A stretch of DNA of 17,496 nt from an uncultured archaeon (GCA_964493715.1 CAZBPC010000070.1:1-17496); one strand, 5' to 3'; numbered from the stretch's first letter, positions 3,598 to 17,496 are shown. The notes: generated by a model from the sequence alone, not told the origin. Numbers and translations are program-made.

Positions 3598-4458
3598 TTA
3601 GCCAGTTGGAGAGAATACTCCCCCGAAAACTAACCATGCTAAAAACGTTTTAGAGACAAGACTAAGTATAATGTACATTTTTTCACCATATAAATAATCT
3701 TTCCATTTACCTACGCCTTTATATTGGAGAATCATATTAATCGCAAATGTATTAAAAAAGAATAATTCAATTGCATAAATCCAATATACAAACCCGGGAA
3801 TCTCTCCACCATTTACTCCTGTGTTAATGAAATATGCTGAGATAACGATCCAAGGAACTGCACCAGCGACTACTCCAAGATAGTAAGCAGTCCATCTAAC
3901 TTTTTCCTTTAATTTTCTCGTATATACATTATGGAGTTCCATCATTAGACCAAACATGTTCATCAAGGCATTAGATATAAAGATCATAAATAAAGCCCAG
4001 AAATCTAAGACTCCAAAGAATAAAGCGATTAAGACTATCATAATTGAGCTTGAAAAAGCATATTCAAACCATCGAACTTTATTAATTCCTTTCTTTAGAT
4101 CTCTATTATATACTTTATTCAATGGGTAAGCAATTAGAAAGTGTGCGATTGCAGATAAGAGAAGGAACGTTCCAACAAACGCACCAAGAGCCGTGAAAGC
4201 AAATATTACTTCTGGATTTGGAGAAAGTGTAGGTGGGGGACCAAGATCAAATTCTAAATAGAAAGTATAGATATTTACCGAAAAACTCAAGAAGGGTAAA
4301 AATCCAAAGAGTACCATCAATAAACCTTGTACTAGATGCAAGATCATGGCATTACGATTAAATTTTTTCAGGTATTCAAAAGTTATCTCTGATTTTGGGA
4401 TTAACCATTCATCTTCATTTTTTATAGAATTCATAATCATAATATTTCGCTTTAGCAT
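3598..4458 (-). CDS. heR: Heliorhodopsin (HeR)
   Basis: Seven hydrophobic segments with HeR signatures: LHLVQ (H41/Q44), SAIAH (S102/H106), RWFEY counterion (R129/E132), FGLMME, FFNTFAIN, and GEKMYIILSLVSK with retinal Lys K270. Alternative starts are ATG 4440 and 4434. Confidence 0.95.
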   Translation of the reverse strand: MLKRNIMIMNSIKNEDEWLIPKSEITFEYLKKFNRNAMILHLVQGLLMVLFGFLPFLSFSVNIYTFYLEFDLGPPPTLSPNPEVIFAFTALGAFVGTFLLLSAIAHFLIAYPLNKVYNRDLKKGINKVRWFEYAFSSSIMIVLIALFFGVLDFWALFMIFISNALMNMFGLMMELHNVYTRKLKEKVRWTAYYLGVVAGAVPWIVISAYFINTGVNGGEIPGFVYWIYAIELFFFNTFAINMILQYKGVGKWKDYLYGEKMYIILSLVSKTFLAWLVFGGVFSPTG

Positions 4459-4610: not shown

Positions 4611-6350
4611 TTATTCATTCATCTCATACTCATCCTTTAAGGAATGGACAGTTTTCCATACTCTTTTAAACCTATCTGGATCTACGTTTGGTTTTTTTAT
4701 CATTTTTAAGCACCATTCCATTTGTTCAGGGGTGGTACTTGACTTATTATACAAGCTCAATGCGTACTTGGAAAAATCTCTCACTAGGAAATCAAAAATT
4801 TGGTCTATAGTATCTCCATCTAAGATATAAATAGCTGCATTTTCAATAATTAAATGAGCATATACTATTAAAGAAAAAATCTCACCAATGCCAGATAGCA
4901 TGAAATCCATATCTTTTTGTTGGTCAACACTTGGAGTAGCTTTATTTCCAAGTAAATTAAACAATTTTATTTGTTCTAAGAAAATTTTGACGTTTGGTAA
5001 ATCATATTTTTCAAAAGCGGGTTTCCAATCATGAAGTCTAACGCGTCCTAAACCTCTTGTAGGACCTTGGTTGAATAAAAAGTCATCATTTCCCACTTGA
5101 TCTTGTTTAGGAACAGGTTCAAATTTCTTATGATTCATAAAAAAGTTGAGCATGAATTTTAAAATTAACGCAATGTTTACATGAACTGTTCCTTCGAGTT
5201 TGGGTAATGCTCGTATATCTTTCGCCGCCATTTCAAAGTACATGTCTTTCTCAAATCCTTTAGCAGCAATAACGTCCCACAAAAGGTTGATTACTTCTTC
5301 TCCTTGGGTTGTAGTTTTCATTTTCATAACGGGGGAATAAAGTAGGTAGCGTCTATCCTTATTAGAAGCAATCCTCATGTAATCTGCTGTCCTCAAACCG
5401 AATAATTTCATTGCAACAAGACGGGTATAAGCATCAACAAAATTCTGTTTAACATGTTGAAAATCAGTAACATGCATTTTATACAACTGACGATGGGAAG
5501 CATGATGTATTGCTTCATAAAACGCGTGCGTACAAATACCTATTGATGCCCAACCTAAATTATATTTCCCAACATTAACAGTATTTAATGAGGAATTCCA
5601 AGCATCCTCCCCTTTCGAAAGAATGTCTTCTTCATTAATAGGATAGTCATGAAGTGCAAAATTTGAAACGTAATTTTGGCTATCACACACGTTTTTAATT
5701 AATTCATAATTTTTGTGCTTATAATTTGCCACAAAGAATACATACTGTTCTTTATTTTTCATATCATATTCTGGAATTTTTCCATTCTTATCCGCAAATT
5801 TCCCAAAGTTTGATACCATCTCTGCTTCATTACCGTTTCCAATATAATATTTTTCTCCATTTGCTTTATAAGTCCCATCATCTTGAGGCGTGAGAGCCAT
5901 TTCAGAAGCATAAATGTCCGCGCCATGATCCTTTTCTGATAGACCAAACGCAAAAATAGCCCCTTCTTCAAGTAATTTAGCAGCTTTTTTTTTCGCTATT
6001 TCATTATTACTCATCCATATTGGACCTAATCCCAATATTGAAACCTGCCAGGTATACCAGTAACTGAGGCCATAAAATCCCAAAATTTCATTAAATTCAC
6101 ATATTCTCCAAGTATCCCAACGATAATTATTATCTTTTCCATATTGGGAGGGTGTAAGAAGTTGAGCAAAAAGTTTATTTTTTTTCTGGAATTCAAGAAA
6201 ATCAGAATACCAAACTTTATTATGATCATCTTCTTTAATTTTAGCCAGACCTTTATTCTCAAAAAATTCAACAGTTTTAGCCATTATTTCGTCAGAATTT
6301 TTATCTGGATAGTAACGATCACGTTTTTTAGGATTCAATAAAAGTGTCAT
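4611..6350 (-). CDS. Acyl-CoA dehydrogenase (long FadE-like subfamily)
   Basis: FAD-binding motifs AFGLSEKDHGAD and ANGEKYYIGNG, RQLY...FQHV, and C-terminal AAKGF...LPKLEGTVHVN with a putative catalytic Glu. Confidence 0.9.
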   Translation of the reverse strand: MTLLLNPKKRDRYYPDKNSDEIMAKTVEFFENKGLAKIKEDDHNKVWYSDFLEFQKKNKLFAQLLTPSQYGKDNNYRWDTWRICEFNEILGFYGLSYWYTWQVSILGLGPIWMSNNEIAKKKAAKLLEEGAIFAFGLSEKDHGADIYASEMALTPQDDGTYKANGEKYYIGNGNEAEMVSNFGKFADKNGKIPEYDMKNKEQYVFFVANYKHKNYELIKNVCDSQNYVSNFALHDYPINEEDILSKGEDAWNSSLNTVNVGKYNLGWASIGICTHAFYEAIHHASHRQLYKMHVTDFQHVKQNFVDAYTRLVAMKLFGLRTADYMRIASNKDRRYLLYSPVMKMKTTTQGEEVINLLWDVIAAKGFEKDMYFEMAAKDIRALPKLEGTVHVNIALILKFMLNFFMNHKKFEPVPKQDQVGNDDFLFNQGPTRGLGRVRLHDWKPAFEKYDLPNVKIFLEQIKLFNLLGNKATPSVDQQKDMDFMLSGIGEIFSLIVYAHLIIENAAIYILDGDTIDQIFDFLVRDFSKYALSLYNKSSTTPEQMEWCLKMIKKPNVDPDRFKRVWKTVHSLKDEYEMNE

Positions 6351-7293: not shown

Positions 7294-7336
7294 ATACTAA
7301 ATATTATTTATTTTAGTAAAGATAGCTAATGTGATA

Positions 7337-9280
7337 ATGAATATTCATAAATTAATGAATGATACTTCAGGAAAGGTAAATTTTTTATTAGGAAATGAAG
7401 CAATTGTCCGTGGAGCTTTAGAAAGTGGGGTGGATGTCTACACATTTTACCCAGGTACTCCAAGTTCAGAAATTGGTGAGATTTTCATGCGAATTCACAA
7501 TGATATTGGAATGAAGTGGGTGGAATCGAGTGTAAATGAAAAGGTTGCTATAGAAATCGCTGGAGCAGCATATGCGAGAGGAGCTACTGCCATGGTTGGG
7601 ATGAAAAATGTTGGCTTAAATGTTGCCTCTGATCCGCTATTTGCGATTGCAACTACTCGTCCTAAAAACTTTAACTCCGCTTTGGTTGTTATAGTAGCAG
7701 ATGATCCCCAAGCGCATTCCAGCGCCGTAGAGATGGACTCAAGATATTATTTAAAACTGTTAAAAATTCCAGCATTAGAACCAAGTGATCCTCAAGAATG
7801 TTTAGATTTTACAAAAAAAGCCTTTGAGATTTCTCGAGAATTAAAGCTTCCTGTAATTGTAAGGACTGTCACGATGGTTTCTCATGCGAGAAGTAATGTT
7901 GTATTTGGAGATTTAAAAAGTTCAGATATTTCTAATGAATTTGATTTATCAAAAGAAGTAAATGTGGCTTCAAGGCTATACTTTCTTGAGTTAAAGGATG
8001 ATCAAATTTACTCTCGAATGAATAGGGCTTTACACATGTCAGAAGAGAGCTCTTTAAACAAAATTGTTAATCTAGAAGACGAAAATAAATACAGATTAGG
8101 AATCGTTACAAGCGGAGTGTCATATCACTATGCTTTAGAGGCTCTTGATCATTTAGGTATCTCAATTCCCATTCTTAAACTCGGTTTTATCAATCCTTTT
8201 CCAGTTAAAGTTGTTACAGAATTTCTTAAGAAGTTTGATAAAGTACTTGTTATAGAAGAAATGGATGCGTTTCTAGAAGACCAGATCCTTGCTGTTGCAA
8301 AAATTGCTGACATTAATACGCAAATTTATGGTAAATTTCCTTTTTCTTATTCGAAAGAACAATCTCTATTACCACTTGTAGGAGAGTTAAATCCTACAAT
8401 AATAAATTTAGCCTTGAAAAAAGTATTGGGGAAAGATTTTACTCCAAATCAAAATGAAGTGAATTCGATCGAACTCGAAACAATGAAGAGACTTCCACTC
8501 TTGTGTTCAGGATGTCCGCATCGCACTACGGGTTATGCTTTGAAGGAAGTTATCAATAAAATAAAATCATTAAAAGGAGTGGATACATATTTTTATCAAG
8601 ATATTGGATGCTATACGATGTTGTCTTATCCTCCTCTTGGATTTGCTAATGTTAAGTATTGCATGGGGTCCAGCATTGCAACAGCTCAAGGTGTTGCTCA
8701 CACAAGCAATGATTTGAACATTGCTATCATAGGAGACGGAACCTTTTTTCACGCGGGCATTCCTGCACTTATAAATGCAGTTCACCATAAAGCACCGATA
8801 TTAGTTTTAATATTAGATAATGGTTGGATTGGAATGACAGGACAACAGCCTCATCCTGGAAGCAATATCATGCACTATCAAGAAGGTATTTATAAAAAAA
8901 ATATTGATTTAGAATCCTTATTAATCGGAATGGGAGCGAACGTAACTTTAATCGACCATAGACCTGAAAGTGATTCTTATTTTAAACATTTAAAAAAACT
9001 TATCCAAAGTAAATGTTTTGAAGTAATCGATAATCAGTCTTTACGGGTAATTTTGATCCGAGATGAATGCATTCAAAAAATTGTCAAACGAAGGACTCCA
9101 ATATTAAGGCAAGTGAATTTTGAATTATGTAATAAATGTGGTTTATGTTACACTCAATTTGCTTGTCCATCAATAAATTTAATCGATGATTCTGTTATTA
9201 TTGATTCAAATTCATGTTTAGGATGTGGGATTTGCGAAGAAATCTGCCCTAACAATGCAATTAACAAGGAGGGGAAATGA
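7337..9280 (+). CDS. iorA: Indolepyruvate:ferredoxin oxidoreductase alpha subunit
   Basis: LLGNEAIVRGA, YPGTPSSEI, NEKVAIE, MKNVGLNVASD, DDPQAHSS, LCSGCPHR, DIGCY, CMGSS, TPP motif GDGTFFHAG...LDNGWIGMTGQQPHP, and C-terminal ferredoxin motifs. The start could be GTG 7331, ATG 7337 or ATG 7355. Confidence 0.93.
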   Translation: MNIHKLMNDTSGKVNFLLGNEAIVRGALESGVDVYTFYPGTPSSEIGEIFMRIHNDIGMKWVESSVNEKVAIEIAGAAYARGATAMVGMKNVGLNVASDPLFAIATTRPKNFNSALVVIVADDPQAHSSAVEMDSRYYLKLLKIPALEPSDPQECLDFTKKAFEISRELKLPVIVRTVTMVSHARSNVVFGDLKSSDISNEFDLSKEVNVASRLYFLELKDDQIYSRMNRALHMSEESSLNKIVNLEDENKYRLGIVTSGVSYHYALEALDHLGISIPILKLGFINPFPVKVVTEFLKKFDKVLVIEEMDAFLEDQILAVAKIADINTQIYGKFPFSYSKEQSLLPLVGELNPTIINLALKKVLGKDFTPNQNEVNSIELETMKRLPLLCSGCPHRTTGYALKEVINKIKSLKGVDTYFYQDIGCYTMLSYPPLGFANVKYCMGSSIATAQGVAHTSNDLNIAIIGDGTFFHAGIPALINAVHHKAPILVLILDNGWIGMTGQQPHPGSNIMHYQEGIYKKNIDLESLLIGMGANVTLIDHRPESDSYFKHLKKLIQSKCFEVIDNQSLRVILIRDECIQKIVKRRTPILRQVNFELCNKCGLCYTQFACPSINLIDDSVIIDSNSCLGCGICEEICPNNAINKEGK

Positions 9281-9861
9281 TGGAATCATCAAATTATACA
9301 ATAGTAATTACGGGATTAGGAGGTCAAGGCATAATACATTTCATTCAGGTTTTAGGTGAAGCAGTAATGGATAAAGGATATTCGGTGATTACTTCTGAAA
9401 CTCACGGTCTAAGTCAACGAGAGGGGAAAGTGAAATGTTTTCTCCGCTATGGAAATAAAATATTAGCCCCGATACCGATGAATGGTTCAGCAGATATCAT
9501 AATTGCACTTGAAAAAAGTTGCATTCTAGATGTATTAAACTTTGCAAAACTAGATAAGAGCACTGAATTGATAATTTCTGAATTTAAAAAACCCATAAAA
9601 AATCAAAAATACATTAGTGATGATTATTTCAACCGTACTCTCCCAAATTTTTCAAAAAATATCCATTATATTACGATTACTGAAATAAAGAATGATATTA
9701 GATTACTAAATACATTGATACTGGGCTATATCATATCTTTTTTACCACTAAGTTATCAAGATCTCCAAAAATCTCTAAATAGCTATTTCTCAGGGGTTAA
9801 TTTGGAAGCAAATCTTAAAGTACTCCAAATTGGACGAATAATAAGGCGAAAAAAAGATTAA
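9277..9861 (+). CDS. iorB: Indolepyruvate:ferredoxin oxidoreductase beta subunit
   Basis: ITGLGGQG, SETHGLSQREG, ADIIIALE, NTLILG, ANLKV. ATGA overlap with the iorA stop and SD GGAGG at 9268-9272 (the second ATG at 9280 is equally plausible). Confidence 0.88.
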   Translation: MMESSNYTIVITGLGGQGIIHFIQVLGEAVMDKGYSVITSETHGLSQREGKVKCFLRYGNKILAPIPMNGSADIIIALEKSCILDVLNFAKLDKSTELIISEFKKPIKNQKYISDDYFNRTLPNFSKNIHYITITEIKNDIRLLNTLILGYIISFLPLSYQDLQKSLNSYFSGVNLEANLKVLQIGRIIRRKKD

Positions 9862-11477: not shown

Positions 11478-12743
11478 TTGGAAAAAATTACTTCCAAAAA
11501 AGAAATTTCAATTCTATACATATACATTACCCTTATGATTTTTGCGTCAGTATCAGTGATTTCTCCCAAGAATATAGTAGCACCGAGTAGTGAGATTATC
11601 GTTCCTGGTTCGGAATTACATTCTTCTTTTGCAAGCTCGGGCACAAATGACATGAGTCCTTCAAACCTTTTGCCAGGAGATATAATTCTATTAGGAACGG
11701 ATGATACCTTTTTTGATTATCTCATTCCTGGTAAATGGTCTCACACGGTCATAGTAGGGGGAATTGCAGGATTTCATCAAATTTGGGCAACTGAAGAAAA
11801 TACTTGGGTCCCAACAGGAGAAACATGGGTCGTTCATTCGACAATGGATGATATGGGTTCTGGTTTAAGAACTTCCAGATTCAATAATGTGGTCAATGAT
11901 CATGCTGGAAATGTAGTTGCAATGAGAATATTAAAACCTGGCGGTGCCTTGCTATCCTCATCTGAAAGAGCTGCAATCGTAAATTTCGCAGTTTCAAAAA
12001 TAGGTCATGATGAAGGATACGATTGGAATTGGCTTGGGAAACAAATTGGAATTGATACTGCAGATCCAGAGATCGCCCCAGATGGATATTATTGCTCAGA
12101 ATTGGCTTGGGCAGCGTATAAGTCAGTAATAGGAATAGACCTCGATGGAGATTTTTCACCTTTTAACATTGGAGTTTCACCAGAAGACCTATACTGGTCA
12201 CAATATGCTCAAGTAATAGCTTTAGAAATGAATTCGGATCCAAATGGTAATAGCGTTCCTGGAGGGGCTTATGCTGTTGACGCGTCTAATGATCTCTATA
12301 AAATGACTGTTTTTGTTGATGAAGTTTATTACGACGATGAGCATGAAGGTTGGCTCATGGGAGATGGTGAGATGTATCTTAAGTTTTGGATAGGAGAAGC
12401 TTATTTCCCAAGCTGTGCTGCTGGTGGCGATTTAAATGATAATCAATTAGACAAGATAGATGACGCTAATGATGATTGGGAATCAGCAGGTAAAAAAGAA
12501 GCACTGGATTGGAATAATTATCACTATGCTCTATTTTCATATAATTCATATTGTAAGGTTAGAGTACAAGCCTCGGAATATGATTCTACTTCAGGTGATG
12601 ATGATTATCCCGCCTTCCAATGGTGGTGGAGTCCGTCTACATGGCATGGTTATACTAATAACGGCTGGTATTGGTCAGGGTATCGATATGATGTGGGAGA
12701 TTGCCGCTACACAATCTACTTCAGAATAGATTCAGTTTATTAA
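11478..12743 (+). CDS. Exported permuted NlpC/P60 (YiiX/YaeF, C92-like) cysteine hydrolase with acidic C2-like C-terminal domain
   Basis: N-terminal hydrophobic signal/TM segment. LLPGDIIL...GKWSH (His) precedes YYCSELAWAAYK...GIDLD...VSPEDL (Cys), the permuted order. The C-terminal region is beta-rich and Asp/Trp/Tyr-rich. TTG start with SD-like GTGAT at 11468-11472. Confidence 0.8.
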   Translation: MEKITSKKEISILYIYITLMIFASVSVISPKNIVAPSSEIIVPGSELHSSFASSGTNDMSPSNLLPGDIILLGTDDTFFDYLIPGKWSHTVIVGGIAGFHQIWATEENTWVPTGETWVVHSTMDDMGSGLRTSRFNNVVNDHAGNVVAMRILKPGGALLSSSERAAIVNFAVSKIGHDEGYDWNWLGKQIGIDTADPEIAPDGYYCSELAWAAYKSVIGIDLDGDFSPFNIGVSPEDLYWSQYAQVIALEMNSDPNGNSVPGGAYAVDASNDLYKMTVFVDEVYYDDEHEGWLMGDGEMYLKFWIGEAYFPSCAAGGDLNDNQLDKIDDANDDWESAGKKEALDWNNYHYALFSYNSYCKVRVQASEYDSTSGDDDYPAFQWWWSPSTWHGYTNNGWYWSGYRYDVGDCRYTIYFRIDSVY

Positions 12744-12779: not shown

Positions 12780-13063
12780 AAAATATGATATAAAGATCGA
12801 ATTAAATTTTTAGAATACAATTTTGCTAAGGATTTCCTCTTTATTGTGGTATTGAGGTTGAAAATATTAGCTATGATATTATTAATTCGGAACTCAAAAT
12901 CAGATATTCTTATGATTTCAGATACAACTAAGTATTTTGTCTCGAAATCTATTCGGCATCCCACTATTTTCCCAGAATCTAGTTCGTTAGATTTATAATA
13001 GATAAAAGAGATTATTTATTTGTAATTTACCAAAAAAATTAATTTCATATAAAAAAATAGAAA

Positions 13064-13076
13064 TGAATTTTATTCG
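13064..13076 (+). promoter_or_regulatory. Putative Lrp/FFRP-type operator TGAAT-TTT-ATTCG upstream of gdhA
   Basis: 5-3-5 semi-palindrome with a TTT centre. The 20-mer 13061-13080 is 18/20 identical to the reverse complement of 17369-17388. Confidence 0.5.
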
Positions 13077-13092
13077 TTAAATAATAAAAAAA

Positions 13093-14424
13093 GTGGGGAA
13101 AATAATTTATAAAGAAGCCATTGTAATTAGGAATGAAATTGAGGATTCATCTAAGTTAAAGAAACCAGAGAGGGTAAGTAGAAATCCCTATGAAATGGCA
13201 AAAAAACAGATTGATATAGTAGCGAAAGAAATGGATTTAGATGTGAACATTATAAAATATTTGAAAAAAGTCGAACGGTCACTAATAGTATCCATTCCGG
13301 TTGTAATGGATAATGGAGATCTAGAGGTTTTTGAAGGGTTCCGAGTACATCATTCTACGGTACGTGGTCCAGGAAAAGGAGGAATTCGATTTTCACCAGA
13401 TGTTTGTTTGGATGAAGTAAAAGCGCTAGCAACGTGGATGACATGGAAAAATAGTTTACTTAATCTTCCTCTGGGGGGTGCAAAAGGGGGTGTTTGTGTA
13501 GATCCTAGAAAATTATCGATTAAGGAGCTTGAGAGGTTAACTAGAAGATATACGGCCGAAATTATTAATGTAATTGGCCCAGATATTGACATACCTGCTC
13601 CAGATGTAGGGACAGATAAAAGGATTATGGCATGGATTATGGATGTATATTCGATGCAAAAAGGGCGTTCAATTCCTGGGGTAGTGACTGGTAAACCAAT
13701 AGAAATAGGTGGATCTGTAGGGCGAGAAAGTGCTACAGGAATGGGCTTGTATTTTGTAATTGATGCTTTATACAAAAAATTGAATTTAAAACTATCAAAT
13801 GCTACTGTAGTTGTTCAAGGATTTGGAAATGTCGGAGGAACTATTGCTAAGATTTTATTTGAAAAAGGAACGAGTATTTTGGCAGTTTCTGATGTTAGTG
13901 GGGGTTTATATAATAAAGAGGGTCTGGATATTAATAAATTACTCAAGTGGAGAGATCAAAACCGTTTATTGAAAGACTTTATCGAGGAAGATTATATATA
14001 TGTTCAAAATAATGAACTTTTAACAATAGATTGCGATATCTTGGTACCAGCAGCAATTGAGAACCAAATAACCCTCTCAAATGTCGATAATATCAACTGT
14101 GCAGTTATTTTAGAAGGGGCAAATGGACCAACTACACCTGAAGCGGATGAAGTATTGAAAGAAAGAGGAATAATTGTCGTTCCAGATATATTAGCCAATG
14201 CTGGAGGCGTTTGCGTCAGTTATTTCGAATATATTCAGGATATACATAGTTACTTTTGGAAGCTGGATCGGATAAATACTGAGTTGGAGAGTATTATGGT
14301 TAGTACCTTTGAAGAAGTGTATCAACTTTCTGTAAAAAGAAATGTGACCTTGAGAACGGCAGCCTACATTATTGCTATATCAAGACTAGCGAGAGCTATT
14401 GAATTAAGGGGAATATTTCCTTAA
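13093..14424 (+). CDS. gdhA: Glutamate dehydrogenase (Glu/Leu/Phe/Val dehydrogenase family)
   Basis: RGPGKGGIRF, MTWK, GGAKGG, DIPAPDVGT, VTGKP...GGS.GR..ATG, Rossmann VQGFGNVG, EGANGPTT, PDILANAGGV.VSYFE. The GTG start is uncertain because it gives a ~30 aa extension before NPYEMA. Confidence 0.96.
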   Translation: MGKIIYKEAIVIRNEIEDSSKLKKPERVSRNPYEMAKKQIDIVAKEMDLDVNIIKYLKKVERSLIVSIPVVMDNGDLEVFEGFRVHHSTVRGPGKGGIRFSPDVCLDEVKALATWMTWKNSLLNLPLGGAKGGVCVDPRKLSIKELERLTRRYTAEIINVIGPDIDIPAPDVGTDKRIMAWIMDVYSMQKGRSIPGVVTGKPIEIGGSVGRESATGMGLYFVIDALYKKLNLKLSNATVVVQGFGNVGGTIAKILFEKGTSILAVSDVSGGLYNKEGLDINKLLKWRDQNRLLKDFIEEDYIYVQNNELLTIDCDILVPAAIENQITLSNVDNINCAVILEGANGPTTPEADEVLKERGIIVVPDILANAGGVCVSYFEYIQDIHSYFWKLDRINTELESIMVSTFEEVYQLSVKRNVTLRTAAYIIAISRLARAIELRGIFP

Positions 14425-14429
14425 GTAAG

Positions 14430-15314
14430 TTAATCTTCAATTTTTAATTTTATTTTTGAGGTTCTTTTAAAAATTTCAATAATACTAAATACATTCATTT
14501 GTGACCTTATCCCTAAAATCGGTTTTATTTCTTTATTAATCAATTCCCATAATTCTTTCTCATTTATCGTAATGATTTGTAAAAGGAGATTAAACTCTCC
14601 TGCGATTCCTGCGATAAGTTGAATTTCTTCAAAATATTTCAATTTATTAGATATTTCACTTATATTTGAAGGATCGACTGATAGACTAATAATAGCTATA
14701 GTTTCATAACCAACTTTATACGGATTGATAAGTGTATCAAATTTTTCGATAATTCCATCACTTATCATATTTTGTACACGATTGTGAATTGTACTTGCTG
14801 CAAGATGGATTCTTTTACTTATTTCTTTAAAGGATATTTTATAATTCTCTTGTAAAATATTGAGGATCATCTTATCTTTACTATCCAATGAAGGTATACT
14901 AACTTTCTTCAAATTTTTTTGAACTTTTATTTTATGCCTTTCAATTCCATATAAAATAGAGCGAGCTAATATAGTTTCATTTAATTCTCCCTTTAATAAA
15001 TAATCTTGAATTCCTCGATTCAAGGAATTTAGAGCGATTTCTTTATCATCATATCCAGTTAAGATAATAATTGGATATTTTAATGTATAGCCTAAAATGC
15101 CAGATAGAGTAGAATCTTTATCACTATCTGGTAAGGTTAGATCTAACAATATAACGTCAACATTTTTCTTTTTAATATAATCTAAACCTTCAGAAAGTCG
15201 CGTAAAAGTTTCAATTTCAAAAGGACTTAAGGAAGATTTTTTTAATAGTTCCTTAATAAGACGTATATCAGCGGGATTATCTTCAATCAATAATATTTTC
15301 AAATATTTTCTCAT
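14430..15314 (-). CDS. Response regulator: receiver domain fused to a full Lrp/AsnC transcription factor (wHTH + RAM)
   Basis: REC with E11-D12, phosphoacceptor D58 (DVILLDLTLPD), IILTG and DYLLKG. Then the Lrp HTH LDSKDKMILNILQEN...FKEISKRIHLAASTIHNRVQNMISDGII, linker INPYKVGY, and a RAM-like region IAGIAGEFNLLLQI. Confidence 0.88.
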   Translation of the reverse strand: MRKYLKILLIEDNPADIRLIKELLKKSSLSPFEIETFTRLSEGLDYIKKKNVDVILLDLTLPDSDKDSTLSGILGYTLKYPIIILTGYDDKEIALNSLNRGIQDYLLKGELNETILARSILYGIERHKIKVQKNLKKVSIPSLDSKDKMILNILQENYKISFKEISKRIHLAASTIHNRVQNMISDGIIEKFDTLINPYKVGYETIAIISLSVDPSNISEISNKLKYFEEIQLIAGIAGEFNLLLQIITINEKELWELINKEIKPILGIRSQMNVFSIIEIFKRTSKIKLKIED

Positions 15315-15366
15315 CTCTTATAAAGCAAGTTTAAATAAATTAGGTTTTAATTATTTTAAATAATTT

Positions 15367-15399
15367 TGAATAATTTTCATTTAATATGTAATTATTTCA
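15367..15399. promoter_or_regulatory. Tandem putative Lrp/FFRP-type sites TGAAT-AAT-TTTCA (15367-15379) and TGTAA-TTA-TTTCA (15387-15399)
   Basis: Two 13-bp semi-palindromes, 20 bp apart start-to-start, 53-85 nt upstream of the REC-Lrp start in the divergent regulator/kinase intergenic region. Confidence 0.35.
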
Positions 15400-15590
15400 G
15401 TAATAGATTATTTTAAATTGATGGTTAATGCAGAAATTGAATAATCATAAATTTTAATTCGGAATATTATCTTAAAAAACGAATAAAATTTTAATTTATT
15501 CAATTTTTTACTATGAAATTTAAATATATAATTTCACTTTCATAAATCAAGAGAAAGAATATTAACTTCACAAATTTTAAAGAAACCTTT

Positions 15591-16673
15591 ATGAGATTAT
15601 CAAATCAAAAAGAAGGCCTAATTATTCTCACAATTTCAATATTGTTCATTATTTCATGTATATTAATTATCTATTTCGAAGTGTTGCTTAAAAATCACTT
15701 TTTTATTGTAAATTTCTTATATATCCCAACAATTTTGTCTTGTTTATATTGGAAAAGAAAAGGTTTATTCGTACCTATTATCCTAATTGTTTTCTTATTA
15801 GTAGTCCAAATTAGTCAAGGAGTATCATTCTTAGGAGAAAATGCTATTAATGGTCTTTCGATAAAGATTTCGATATTAATCGTTGGAATCATAGTAGCGG
15901 TTCTATCTGAAAAGATTTTAAAAAAAGAAATCGAGTTAAATGATATAATTAAAGATTTGAAGCGCTCAAACGAGGATCTTCAGCAATTTGCTTATGTAAC
16001 TTCCCACGATTTACAAGAACCTCTTAGGGCAATCATTAGTTTTTCTCAACTCTTAGAGGAAAAGTATCATAACAAATTAGACAAGGATGGTAAGGAATTT
16101 ATTTATTTTATTACTGATGGAGCAAAACGTATGAATATACTTATAAAAGACTTATTGAGTTATTCTCGAATTATTACTCAAGCAAAACCTTTTGAATGGC
16201 ATAATCTAGAACCAATTTTAAAAGATGCTTTATTCAATTTACAAGAAGCAATTAAAGAAAGCGGTGCTGTTATTACTTATGATCCCCTACCCACATTGAA
16301 GGTTGATCGAATTCAATTTTTACAATTATTTCAAAATTTCCTGAGTAATGCAATTAAATTTCGTAAAAATGAGCCTCCGGTTATTCACATTGGGGTTAAT
16401 CGATTAAATAATAAATGGGTGTTTTCAATTAAAGATAATGGTATAGGAATAGATTCCAAATATCATGATCGCCTTTATAATATTTTTTATCGCTTGCACA
16501 CCAAAGAAGAATATCCTGGAACAGGGATTGGTTTGCCTATATGTAAAAAAATTATTCAGAGATATGGTGGAGAAATATGGGTGGAATCTGAACTTGGAAA
16601 AGGTTCTACATTCTTTTTTACAATCATGACTAAAAAAGTTAAAAATCATCAGAGGGAAAATTATTTATCATGA
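15591..16673 (+). CDS. Membrane-bound sensor histidine kinase (4 N-terminal TM segments; Cph1/bacteriophytochrome-type HisKA-HATPase core, no photosensory module)
   Basis: H-box FAYVTSHDLQEPLR, N-box QLFQNFLSNAIKF, G1 IKDNGIGI, F-box IFYRLH, G2 YPGTGIGLPICKKI, and ESELGKGSTFFF. Four hydrophobic segments in aa ~9-106. Confidence 0.93.
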   Translation: MRLSNQKEGLIILTISILFIISCILIIYFEVLLKNHFFIVNFLYIPTILSCLYWKRKGLFVPIILIVFLLVVQISQGVSFLGENAINGLSIKISILIVGIIVAVLSEKILKKEIELNDIIKDLKRSNEDLQQFAYVTSHDLQEPLRAIISFSQLLEEKYHNKLDKDGKEFIYFITDGAKRMNILIKDLLSYSRIITQAKPFEWHNLEPILKDALFNLQEAIKESGAVITYDPLPTLKVDRIQFLQLFQNFLSNAIKFRKNEPPVIHIGVNRLNNKWVFSIKDNGIGIDSKYHDRLYNIFYRLHTKEEYPGTGIGLPICKKIIQRYGGEIWVESELGKGSTFFFTIMTKKVKNHQRENYLS

Positions 16674-17095
16674 ACGATAACAGTAAGAAATACTTTAAGA
16701 TTTTGCTTGTGGAAGATAATCCCGCAGATATCAGCCTTACAAAAGAAGCTCTAAATAAAAATGATGTTATTACTGAAGTATACGTAGTCCATAATGGAGT
16801 AGAGACATTACACTTTTTAGAAAAAAAAACTCGCCCCGACTTAATCTTTTTGGATCTCAATTTGCCAAAAATGACTGGTTTGGAAGTGTTAAAAGAAATT
16901 AAAGAACATGAAGAATACAGAAGAATTCCTGTTGTAATTTTAACGATATCTGCTAACGAGGAGGATTTAAAAAAAGCATATGATCTTCACGCTAATTGTT
17001 ATGTAAACAAACCATTGGAAATCAAGGAATTTTATGAAATTATGAAATCTATTACAGATTTCTTTTTTAAAACAGTTAGACTCTCAAATATTTAG
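16670..17095 (+). CDS. Single-domain response regulator, Rcp1-like
   Basis: ILLVEDNPAD, PDLIFLDLNLPK.TGLEVL, IPVVILTIS...AYDLHANCYVNKP. ATGA overlap with the kinase stop. Confidence 0.92.
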   Translation: MNDNSKKYFKILLVEDNPADISLTKEALNKNDVITEVYVVHNGVETLHFLEKKTRPDLIFLDLNLPKMTGLEVLKEIKEHEEYRRIPVVILTISANEEDLKKAYDLHANCYVNKPLEIKEFYEIMKSITDFFFKTVRLSNI

Positions 17096-17139
17096 AGTTA
17101 TGTAAGAAAAAGGACTCAAAAAATAGTAGAATTTAAATA

Positions 17140-17358
17140 TTATTTAATAGCTAAAACTACATTTTTATCGTGATATGTGGCATCTAAGGTTAATTTGATT
17201 TTAGGTTGATTAAAGTCTTCAATCGAATTACAATTCCAAGGTCTACAAATCCGATCATCACCAAAAACTACACCATGACAGATTGTATATTCTTCACAGG
17301 AATGGTAAATTCTCGTTCCTAAACTATATTCCATATCACATTTTGGACACTTGACCAA
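17140..17358 (-). CDS. Small Cys/His-rich putative metal-binding protein (72 aa)
   Basis: MVKCPKC...HSC...CHG...C...WNC. The ORF-track GTG (17367) lies within an SD-like AAGGTGA, 5 nt before the in-frame TTG at 17358, which is the more likely start. The ORF fills otherwise empty space. Confidence 0.65.
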   Translation of the reverse strand: MVKCPKCDMEYSLGTRIYHSCEEYTICHGVVFGDDRICRPWNCNSIEDFNQPKIKLTLDATYHDKNVVLAIK

Positions 17359-17372
17359 TTTTTTCACCTTAC

Positions 17373-17385
17373 CGAATAAAAATCA
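17373..17385 (-). promoter_or_regulatory. Putative Lrp/FFRP-type operator TGATT-TTT-ATTCG upstream of small Cys-rich gene
   Basis: Same orientation and similar distance to the start codon as the gdhA site, and 12/13 identical to it. Confidence 0.45.
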
Positions 17386-17496
17386 TTTATTATAATAACT
17401 AAATTTCAATTATTTTAGTTGATATACGTTATAATATATTAATTTATTTTATTTAAATTCATCGTAATAAATTCGGTTATTTTAAATTCTATCATA

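Follow-up and report, generated by a model that had tools for sequence, protein, structure and literature searches.

A receiver-Lrp/AsnC fusion regulator and its predicted two-component circuit beside gdhA in one family of Asgard archaea

Response regulators that bind DNA are very few in archaea. In its main text, the 2018 census of two-component systems in archaea (PMC5847659) names the Bat-type proteins, LtrR-like proteins with a helix-turn-helix (HTH) ahead of the receiver (HTH-REC), and FilR1 (wHTH-DUF1724-REC, with a winged HTH), and it assigns most archaeal two-component signalling to stand-alone receivers and protein-protein contacts. Lrp/AsnC proteins, the feast/famine regulatory proteins (FFRPs), are normally controlled by effectors, as described in a 2010 review of archaeal Lrp proteins (PMC2995911). 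Here we analyze a locus in which a receiver and a complete Lrp/AsnC protein are joined in one gene (the fusion). It lies at the right end of a 17,496-bp stretch of DNA, hereafter the window, which is the whole of contig C70 in a 3.68-Mb, 160-contig archaeal genome with 31% GC and a completeness of 100% by marker genes. The listing of open reading frames (ORFs) places four close-packed genes there: the glutamate dehydrogenase gene gdhA, the fusion, a histidine kinase and a single receiver. We propose that they represent a lineage-specific branched two-component system of one Asgard (Promethearchaeota, Loki-type) family, in which the kinase switches the fusion at gdhA, a reading that we regard as fairly probable while well short of assured.

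13093-14424, plus strand: gdhA, the longest ORF, its true start uncertain, with ELFV_dehydrog and ELFV_dehydrog_N domains
14430-15314, minus strand: REC-Lrp/AsnC fusion response regulator of 294 aa, from ORF and Pfam domains
15591-16673, plus strand: membrane histidine kinase of 360 aa, from its ORF, with HisKA carrying H139, HATPase_c and a hydrophobic N-terminus at residues ~9-107
16670-17095, plus strand: Rcp1-like single-domain receiver of 141 aa, from its ORF, with Response_reg at 88.1 bits and residues E15, D16, D62, T92 and K114

The product of gdhA matches the archaeal GdhA family NF040817 of NCBIfam (4.9e-154). The fusion and gdhA are convergent, with stops 5 nt apart, and the fusion is divergent from the kinase across a 276-nt AT-rich gap (24% GC over 15001-16000), while the ATG of the single receiver overlaps the TGA of the kinase (ATGA at 16670-16673). 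The ORF coordinates thus bear out the overlap, divergence and convergence described in the original prediction, an earlier reading of this DNA, whose structural description was correct in every checkable detail.

Both building blocks of the fusion are well known, and the logic of the circuit is as expected from joining them. Like the fusion, LtrR, FilR1 and the Bat-type proteins belong to archaeal two-component systems and have an HTH as their output, in the descriptions of the census main text (PMC5847659). The order of domains in LtrR and FilR1 given there is reversed in the fusion, where the receiver is N-terminal (PMC5847659), and the output of the fusion differs from those of all three in comprising an entire Lrp/AsnC protein, oligomerisation domain included. 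Their hosts differ as well: the same text places the three described types in haloarchaea or methanogens (PMC5847659), whereas the fusion belongs to an Asgard family. On the output side, the closest solved relatives are the Pyrococcus FFRPs DARP (PH0140; 9w4v, 7fby), FL11 (PH1519; 1ri7, 2e1c) and LrpA (1i1g), which have the same wHTH and RAM domains as the fusion and lack the 140-residue receiver and helical linker that precede its HTH. DARP differs further, since most equivalents of its D111, T141 and T143 are replaced in the fusion, which in turn sits in a kinase cassette. With the Cph1-Rcp1/RcpA modules the cassette shares the type of single receiver, the kinase core and the kinase-receiver operon, but its kinase has about 110 hydrophobic N-terminal residues in place of PAS, GAF and PHY domains.

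We regard the REC-Lrp/AsnC fusion as a class of response regulator that is real, conserved and, it appears, not yet described. Our full-text literature searches returned no description of one; Table S3 of PMC5847659 may list such proteins. For Asgard genomes the main text of that census gives other architectures and no REC-Lrp/AsnC protein, which Table S3 may include (PMC5847659), and the words fused, fusion, receiver and two-component are absent from the 2010 review of archaeal Lrp proteins (PMC2995911). The earlier statement that archaeal response regulators rarely carry DNA-binding outputs agrees with the main text of the census (PMC5847659), which counts them as rare, and none is described for Asgard archaea in the literature searched. 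In the prokaryotes most closely related to eukaryotes, the cassette would represent a complete and compact circuit that runs from a sensor kinase through a pair of receivers and an output that binds DNA to a predicted operator and a defined metabolic target. If the proposal is true, an Lrp oligomer would be under a new kind of control, by phosphorylation instead of an amino acid, and Asgard archaea would possess a direct kinase-to-promoter circuit acting on central nitrogen and carbon metabolism through gdhA. Save for the membrane part of the kinase, the parts of the cassette are small soluble domains, which makes the key claims testable in vitro without culturing the organism.

The fusion protein and its amino-acid pocket

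Pfam places Response_reg (PF00072) at residues 7-116 of the fusion (60.5 bits; cut-off 30.2), HTH_AsnC-type (PF13404) at 143-183 (45.8 bits; cut-off 27) and HTH_24 (PF13412) at 143-190 (57.6 bits; cut-off 21.9). At the C-terminus, AsnC_trans_reg_3 (PF22482; 217-285) scores 24.8 bits, barely above its cut-off of 24.4, and AsnC_trans_reg (PF01037; 210-271) 22.5 bits, barely below its cut-off of 25. By phmmer, the C-terminal 155 residues align over the whole of an FFRP, with matches to PH0140/DARP (1.3e-24, residues 142-273), FL11 (6.8e-19) and LrpA (7e-16) that run through residues 273-290. The same Pyrococcus proteins are the best Foldseek matches, a search that found no solved structure with both halves (best whole-length query-normalised TM-score, 0.43). 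The resulting parts of the protein are as follows.

14967-15296, minus strand: receiver domain, residues 7-116, with the codon of the phospho-acceptor D58 at 15141-15143
14883-14978, minus strand: linker, residues 113-144, a long helix (113-135) extending receiver helix 5, then a low-confidence stretch
14745-14888, minus strand: AsnC-type winged helix-turn-helix, residues 143-190, from HTH_24 and HTH_AsnC-type
14460-14702, minus strand: RAM or Lrp/AsnC C-terminal domain, residues 205-285, from AsnC_trans_reg_3, the model strands and the PH0140 match

An AlphaFold2 (AF2) model of the fusion (mean pLDDT 84.7, pTM 0.48) consists of a normal receiver followed by a helix, a hinge, the wHTH and the RAM. 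Within the linker, helix 113-135 gives way to residues 136-138 with pLDDT below 50, and the block 131-140 averages 54. The RAM has the order strand-helix-strand-strand-helix-strand (E205-213, H215-225, E231-236, E243-249, H252-263, E269-276). Since the pTM is low, the relative orientation of the domains is not predicted.

The receiver has every appearance of being functional. E11, D12, D58, T86 and K108 are invariant in all 65 aligned family members, as they are in an 18-member alignment, and position 105 is Tyr in 61 of the 65, Phe in two and His in two. We take these residues to be the counterparts of D12, D13, D57, T87, Y106 and K109 of CheY. The Pfam domains and this conservation confirm the claim that an intact receiver, with E11/D12, D58, the Thr and the Lys, is joined to a complete Lrp/AsnC protein. 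In the HTH, the 65-member alignment shows no variation at L171, A172, S174, T175, H177, R179, V180 and Q181, at least 90% conservation at A173 and I176, and a few members that differ at N178. This near-invariance of segment 171-181 points to one conserved DNA target that the family would share.

The pocket in which an Lrp protein would hold its amino acid is a different matter. DARP binds its ligand through Asp111, which holds the amino group, and the pair Thr141 and Thr143, which hold the carboxylate, as set out in a structural study (PMC13628549). These residues correspond to positions 242, 272 and 274 of the fusion, the latter two approximately, as they fall at the very end of the phmmer alignment. 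Position 242 is Asn in 52 of the 65 members, Asp in 12 and Ser in one; Thr occurs once at position 272 and never at 274. Judged from this alignment, the canonical amino-acid pocket is not conserved in the fusion family, and we therefore consider that the receiver has probably replaced the amino acid as the input of the Lrp module, as opposed to adding a second one. Two points tell against such a replacement, namely the uncertain equivalence of 272 and 274 and the 12 members that keep the Asp. The amino-acid sensing that the original prediction implied for the Lrp half finds no support in the DARP ligand residues, which are not conserved.

Conversely, the receiver could be a phosphorylation-independent module for dimerisation or stability, and the fusion a constitutive or ligand-controlled Lrp regulator. 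The 12 of 65 members with Asp at the DARP position would suit such an arrangement, as would the effector control that is normal for Lrp proteins in the review's account (PMC2995911). Against it stand the five catalytic residues, present in 65 of 65 members, the switch Tyr in 61 of 65, a cognate-looking kinase that is co-inherited with the fusion, and the absence of the carboxylate-binding Thr pair of DARP. We consider this explanation very improbable; a pseudo-receiver is unlikely where the catalytic residues are invariant.

Distribution and synteny of the cassette

A word-indexed database search returned 414 relatives of the fusion at E<=1e-3. All 120 matches listed have Response_reg, HTH_24 and AsnC domains, a length of 263-310 aa and 52-94% identity to the query. 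Source labels among these matches are all Asgard names (Promethearchaeota, Loki-, Hod-, Thor-, Heimdall- and Hermodarchaeota); Promethearchaeota is a phylum in the kingdom Promethearchaeati. The pipeline labels on these Asgard proteins are generic, such as 'response regulator' or 'DNA-binding Lrp family transcriptional regulator/CheY-like chemotaxis protein', and some database entries (P0037, P0075) begin inside the receiver. An exhaustive HMMER search of 1.84 billion representatives at 50% identity clustering gave one full-length representative (P0046, 1.4e-95, query residues 5-289) and one fragment; the remaining top matches cover the receiver alone or the Lrp half alone. Eight candidates of nearly 300 aa that matched in two stretches were rejected, as Pfam assigns them REC-REC, REC-HisKA or similar domains and none is REC-Lrp.

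We sampled 299 genomes of the phylum, with 66 other genomes of the window's family (f1) and 233 of 29 other families. The fusion matched at E<=1e-40 in 33 of 299 genomes, all from f1; among the 66 other f1 genomes there were 32 with a match, and among the 233 none. In 27 of the 32 the match spans receiver and Lrp half, and the other five hold a stand-alone Lrp relative only. The fusion, whose absence from related genomes would have spoken against it, is thus conserved in 27 of 66 other family genomes as well as in the 120 database matches listed. These 27 genomes also exclude an assembly chimera or a frameshift artefact. The assembly is further supported by contigs from three other salt-marsh runs, which cover 30, 29 and 30 of 30 bins of positions 13000-17496 and for which no indels are reported within the fusion gene. 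The three runs may stem from a single sampling campaign, so that the orthologues constitute the stronger support.

For synteny, ORFs from ~8 kb on each side of 20 loci were clustered together with those of the window and of locus L009. Kinase and single receiver adjoin the fusion in all 19 loci in which the upstream flank is present, from at least four genera. Single receiver and kinase run in one direction and the fusion in the other in 18 loci, and in L137 all three are on one strand. Of the 21 loci that could be assessed for it, 17 have a convergent gdhA beside the fusion. The synteny proposed earlier with kinase, Rcp1-like receiver and gdhA therefore holds in 19/19, 19/19 and 17/21 assessable loci, respectively. 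A full-length kinase, including its membrane part, occurs in 25 of the 27 fusion genomes, and in the two that lack it the fusion is on contigs of 3-4 kb. Among the family genomes listed that have no fusion, there is either no kinase match or a match to the core only, inside a much larger protein; the exception is G147, with a partial kinase match (residues 67-349) on the contig that carries its match to the Lrp half. From the synteny and the co-occurrence of the kinase we conclude that the cassette, as these genomes present it, is a unit of inheritance with a patchy distribution, found in about half of the species of genus g1 and most of g2.

Archaea are probably not alone in having this architecture. 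Two clusters of the ESM Atlas, with 99 and 55 members (274 and 278 aa) and Chloroflexota as the commonest phylum, have the same set of domains, with Response_reg and AsnC_trans_reg on 100% of members, an HTH on 97-98% and a feature score to the fusion of 0.90. These uncharacterised bacterial look-alikes are not close to the fusion, as none is among its best 150 HMMER matches (lowest listed, 113 bits). Searches of genome contigs added no bacterial example. A scan with a back-translated receiver pattern found a true orthologue in one of 80 loci (L009), and tblastn with the Lrp half found no fusion in the other 79 scanned loci. No bacterial REC-AsnC fusion appeared in these 79 loci or in five Chloroflexota genomes, which does not amount to absence, and the same limit applies to 301 genomes without one at E<=1e-30 (seven candidates scored per genome). 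A receiver was likewise present in none of the ten longest-frame PF01037 matches (242-279 aa) among the matches listed for 151 genomes, a result that again falls short of absence.

The orthologues revealed some peculiarities of gene starts and of gdhA copy number. In six fusion orthologues (L121, L123, L127, L009, L129 and L133) no ATG, GTG or TTG precedes the first receiver strand, and the frames open with Ile, Asn, Glu or Lys codons directly after a stop. Several gdhA genes of genus g1 (window ~13093-13110; L118, L119, L120, L126) have a G-rich Shine-Dalgarno-like stretch followed by ATA or ATT and no canonical start. Going by these frames, the family may use ATA/ATT start codons. Upstream of the cassette, L122, L124, L128 and L136 carry a divergent pair of gdh-like genes (418 and 416 aa) together with two others, of 263 aa and 261-439 aa. 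Several g1 genomes thus cluster up to three glutamate dehydrogenase paralogues, and the extra copies are absent from the window.

Kinase, single receiver and the predicted route of phosphotransfer

Pfam finds HisKA (130-194) and HATPase_c (239-345) in the kinase. H139 lies in the H-box, whose 'SHD' is invariant in 19 orthologues. A Kyte-Doolittle scan of the kinase gives three hydrophobic blocks (6-40, 54-83 and 84-112), so that the multi-span N-terminus of the '4-TM' kinase described earlier stands, with the count of four spans being a fit to the three blocks by eye. This membrane part is conserved among the 19 orthologues. Its 115 N-terminal residues match no Pfam family even at E<=10 and fall into unnamed atlas clusters, with a weak lead to DUF4118 on 28% of the members of a cluster at rank 14. 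The core matches 8f71 (1.4e-46) and then bacteriophytochrome kinases (6.5e-33). The latter resemblance justifies the earlier label 'Cph1-type' for the core and not for the whole protein, in which Pfam finds HisKA and HATPase_c only and no PAS-GAF-PHY photosensory core. The description of the single receiver as Rcp1-like is upheld by matches over residues 1-138 to RcpA (1k68, 3.1e-33) and Rcp1 (1i3c, 2e-30); its 'LDLNLP' around D62 is invariant in 19 orthologues.

The original prediction had spoken of a phosphorelay. A search of this genome, 100% complete by marker genes, for the HPt domain PF01627 gave no match at E<=0.01, while the control search was positive in 9 of 14 reference genomes, and Pfam shows no extra His domain on the cassette kinase or receivers. 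We therefore abandon a His-Asp-His-Asp relay in favor of a branched two-component system of one kinase and two receivers. In this system, a kinase embedded in the membrane, in which no extracytoplasmic or PAS/GAF sensor is recognisable, would autophosphorylate on H139 and pass the phosphoryl group both to D58 of the fusion and to D62 of the single receiver, which might serve as a competing acceptor, a phosphate sink or a modulator. Phosphorylation of the fusion receiver could then alter, via helix 113-135, the oligomerisation of the Lrp module or the presentation of its wHTH. The receiver would supplant the amino acid as the main input to a RAM without the ligand residues of its closest solved relative.

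It is possible that the kinase and single receiver are instead a self-contained pair that acts by protein contacts, with the fusion served by another kinase or by small phospho-donors and located nearby since it regulates the locus. The pair forms an ATGA-overlapped operon separate from the divergent fusion gene, and the arrangement for cotranscription with the single receiver, which could therefore be the primary partner of the kinase, is a point that the branched circuit has to accommodate. Further kinases exist in the genome, with cores up to 54% identical (for example at C21:41141-41842), and signalling through stand-alone receivers prevails in archaea by the main text of the census (PMC5847659). 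On the other hand, a self-contained pair would not lead one to expect the full-length kinase in 25 of 27 fusion genomes when, among the fusion-less family genomes listed, only G147 has more than a kinase-core match. Nor does it account readily for adjacency in 19 of 19 assessable loci from at least four genera, or for L137, where kinase, receiver and fusion share one strand. We consider a self-contained pair unlikely, and the branched system, with the fusion as one of two acceptors, preferable.

A second cluster in the same genome offers a clue to the origin of the fusion. Contig C21 (~37172-41842; loci L002 and L003) encodes a kinase of the HisKA-HATPase type, a single receiver of 149 aa and two multidomain receiver proteins, REC-PAS-PAS-HisKA and REC-HATPase_c. 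The closest paralogues of the fusion receiver are the receivers of the C21 REC-PAS-HisKA and REC-HATPase_c proteins (42-46% identity), which suggests an origin within this lineage, where such a receiver may have joined a local Lrp gene. The closest own-genome paralogue of the Lrp half is 35% identical. The earlier pattern of a kinase and Rcp1-like receiver accompanied by a third REC-output protein fits the C21 cluster, an observation confined to this genome.

Candidate operators, the Zn-ribbon gene and neighbouring genes

A 13-bp palindrome, TGAATAWTATTCA, is conserved before gdhA, the fusion gene and a gene for a Zn-ribbon-like protein that follows the single receiver. Palindrome k-mers, enriched 17-36-fold in these three promoter classes, assemble into TGAATAWTATTCA. 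The operator of FL11 is also a palindrome of 13 bp in the section of the review that describes it (PMC2995911), the same length as that predicted for the fusion. The window contains the following candidates, together with the third target gene.

13064-13076, no strand assigned: operator candidate O1, TGAATTTTATTCG, 17 nt upstream of the longest gdhA ORF; best matrix match in the window, 16.9 bits
15367-15379, no strand assigned: operator candidate O2, TGAATAATTTTCA, 53 nt upstream of the fusion ATG; 1 mismatch; second-best, 12.5 bits
17373-17385, no strand assigned: operator candidate O3, CGAATAAAAATCA as read on the plus strand, 6 nt upstream of the Zn-ribbon ORF; 2 mismatches; third-best, 11.0 bits
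12943-12955, no strand assigned: tentative weak distal site, CGAAATCTATTCG, 121 nt upstream of O1; 3 mismatches
17140-17367, minus strand: Cys/His-rich Zn-ribbon-like protein of 75 aa, 59% identical over 54 aa to L009:5536-6129

The half-sites of FL11 are presumably TGAA/TTCA as well. A position matrix built from 40 orthologue sites, with the window excluded, has its three best window matches in the promoters of gdhA, the fusion and the Zn-ribbon gene, and the third-best score (11.0) is higher than the third-best score in any of the 100 shuffles (10.5 at most). O1 ranks second of the 110 matches of at least 11 bits in the 3.68-Mb genome, and its position upstream of gdhA is conserved in orthologues. 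The site between fusion and kinase is perfect in 15 of 18 loci, has one mismatch in the window and was not found in two. Zn-ribbon(-Lrp) orthologues have sites at about -56 to -64 and -206 to -215. Across the 313.6 kb of loci, 42 of 58 sites with at most one mismatch fall in the 15.8 kb of target regions. The 121-nt spacing of the tentative distal site recurs between stronger sites in L121, and 29 of 34 spacings between adjacent sites deviate by no more than 2 nt from a multiple of 30. Such ~30-nt phasing fits the wrapping of DNA on an Lrp oligomer, as a description of orthologous loci that are not independent. Together, these candidate operators support the link between the fusion and gdhA.

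When gdhA orthologues are anchored on the site, a conserved TATA-like block lies 45-70 nt upstream and the start codon 2-30 nt downstream. Archaeal transcription usually starts ~25 nt after the TATA box. With this geometry the proximal operator would be at or after the transcription start and the weaker sites upstream of the TATA box, which favors repression by occlusion. Hence it appears more likely that the fusion represses gdhA by occluding its core promoter than that it activates the gene. In mechanistic terms, a change in the state of the receiver would change the occupancy of the phased 13-bp palindromes at the promoters of gdhA, of the fusion gene itself (autoregulation) and of the Zn-ribbon gene. 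At gdhA, with a proximal operator between TATA-like block and start codon and weaker sites 90-150 nt upstream, the wrapping of DNA by Lrp would occlude the core promoter.

Contigs of the other salt-marsh runs break off or diverge around O2 (15352-15381), and small insertions (T; TA or AAT) occur at 15363 and 15438-15439 of the divergent intergenic region, which suggests variation of this promoter region at the strain level. Elsewhere in the genome, intergenic operator-like sites precede a serine hydroxymethyltransferase gene by 121 nt (C16:14394-14406, 15.1 bits) and are found around another AsnC-type HTH gene (C131:5033-5045 and 5615-5627; 14.3 and 12.6 bits). Both genes are possible further members of a regulon on the strength of these matches; as the background is too high in a genome with 31% GC, we call no regulon.

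The Zn-ribbon gene has an informative history. In 12 of 22 loci, a 197-aa Zn-ribbon-Lrp gene lies upstream of the single receiver on the strand of the fusion. Its product combines an N-terminal Cys/His-rich domain of ~50 aa, in which C7, C10, H22, C24, H31 and C46 are invariant in 15 sequences, with an Lrp/AsnC module 46-50% identical to the Lrp half of the fusion. The 75-aa ORF of the window, which matches no Pfam family, corresponds to the Cys/His domain only, as do the 75-78-aa ORFs of L118 and L120. It follows from this match that the Lrp half of the paralogue has been lost here; to judge by the alignment, this genome dropped it and retained the small domain as a free protein.

The presence of this paralogue raises the question of whether another Lrp protein, be it the Zn-ribbon-Lrp or a stand-alone one, binds the palindromes, while the fusion has other targets or forms mixed oligomers. 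The recognition helix and HTH segment of the paralogue are nearly identical to those of the fusion, so that it could bind the same sites where it is present, a difficulty for assigning them to the fusion. It also occupies the same cassette in the 12 loci mentioned, and the genome has several other Lrp-like frames. Yet the paralogue is reduced to its Zn-ribbon in the window, L118 and L120, and in the latter two the three promoters nevertheless retain sites with at most one mismatch; the other Lrp frames of the genome are at most 35% identical to the Lrp half of the fusion. Binding by another Lrp protein alone thus seems to us improbable, more so than a self-contained kinase-receiver pair. In this genome the operator sites persist although the neighbouring Zn-ribbon-Lrp has lost its Lrp half, and no protein of the cassette other than the fusion has a DNA-binding domain. 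We infer that the fusion is the likely binder of the predicted operators and that the Zn-ribbon-Lrp may share them where it occurs.

A more speculative possibility, to which we attach rather low probability, combines several of these elements. The amino-acid sensor of a feast/famine regulator would have been functionally replaced by a phospho-receiver, the Zn-ribbon-Lrp would share the operators of the fusion, and mixed Lrp oligomers might integrate membrane signals with redox or metal signals at one promoter, the free 75-aa Zn-ribbon protein of this genome being still under operator control.

As for the branched system acting at gdhA, direct support exists for its domain content, catalytic residues, conservation and co-inheritance, and for the conservation and position of the operators. 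Several considerations weigh against it. The enrichment motif was discovered in the same regions in which it was counted, which makes the counts partly circular, and orthologous loci are not independent. When the window was shuffled by mononucleotide, one of 100 versions scored as high as 19.6 bits; O2 (12.5 bits) and O3 (11.0 bits) are unremarkable among the 110 genomic matches of at least 11 bits, many of which are inside ORFs; and the window operators are imperfect, with 1, 1 and 2 mismatches in O1, O2 and O3. The TATA box and transcription start of gdhA are read from sequence alone, and gdhA is missing beside the fusion in 4 of 21 assessable loci. Finally, the steps between signal and promoter are deduced: what the kinase senses, which receivers it phosphorylates, that the fusion binds DNA, and with what sign it regulates. 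On balance, the idea that a two-component system recruited a feast/famine regulator and tied it to amino-acid catabolism retains its core, an intact co-inherited fusion and operators at gdhA, and loses the phosphorelay and the amino-acid sensing.

The remainder of the contig encodes several further proteins. A heliorhodopsin gene (286 aa; 3598-4458, minus strand; PF18761, 3.8e-88) is located ~10 kb from the cassette. The gene at 11478-12743 (plus strand) specifies a protein of 421 aa whose N-terminus is hydrophobic and which has a C92 amidase domain of the permuted papain-like type (PF05708, 1.3e-8) and, after it, an Asp/Trp/Tyr-rich C-terminal region of unassigned nature. An indolepyruvate/2-oxoacid:ferredoxin oxidoreductase-like pair lies at 7331-9861 (plus strand; TPP_enzyme_C, POR_N, Fer4) and 4611-6350 (minus strand; POR), and an acyl-CoA dehydrogenase-like gene is also present. 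The contig is accordingly rich in genes of amino-acid and acyl-CoA catabolism, which fits the context of gdhA.

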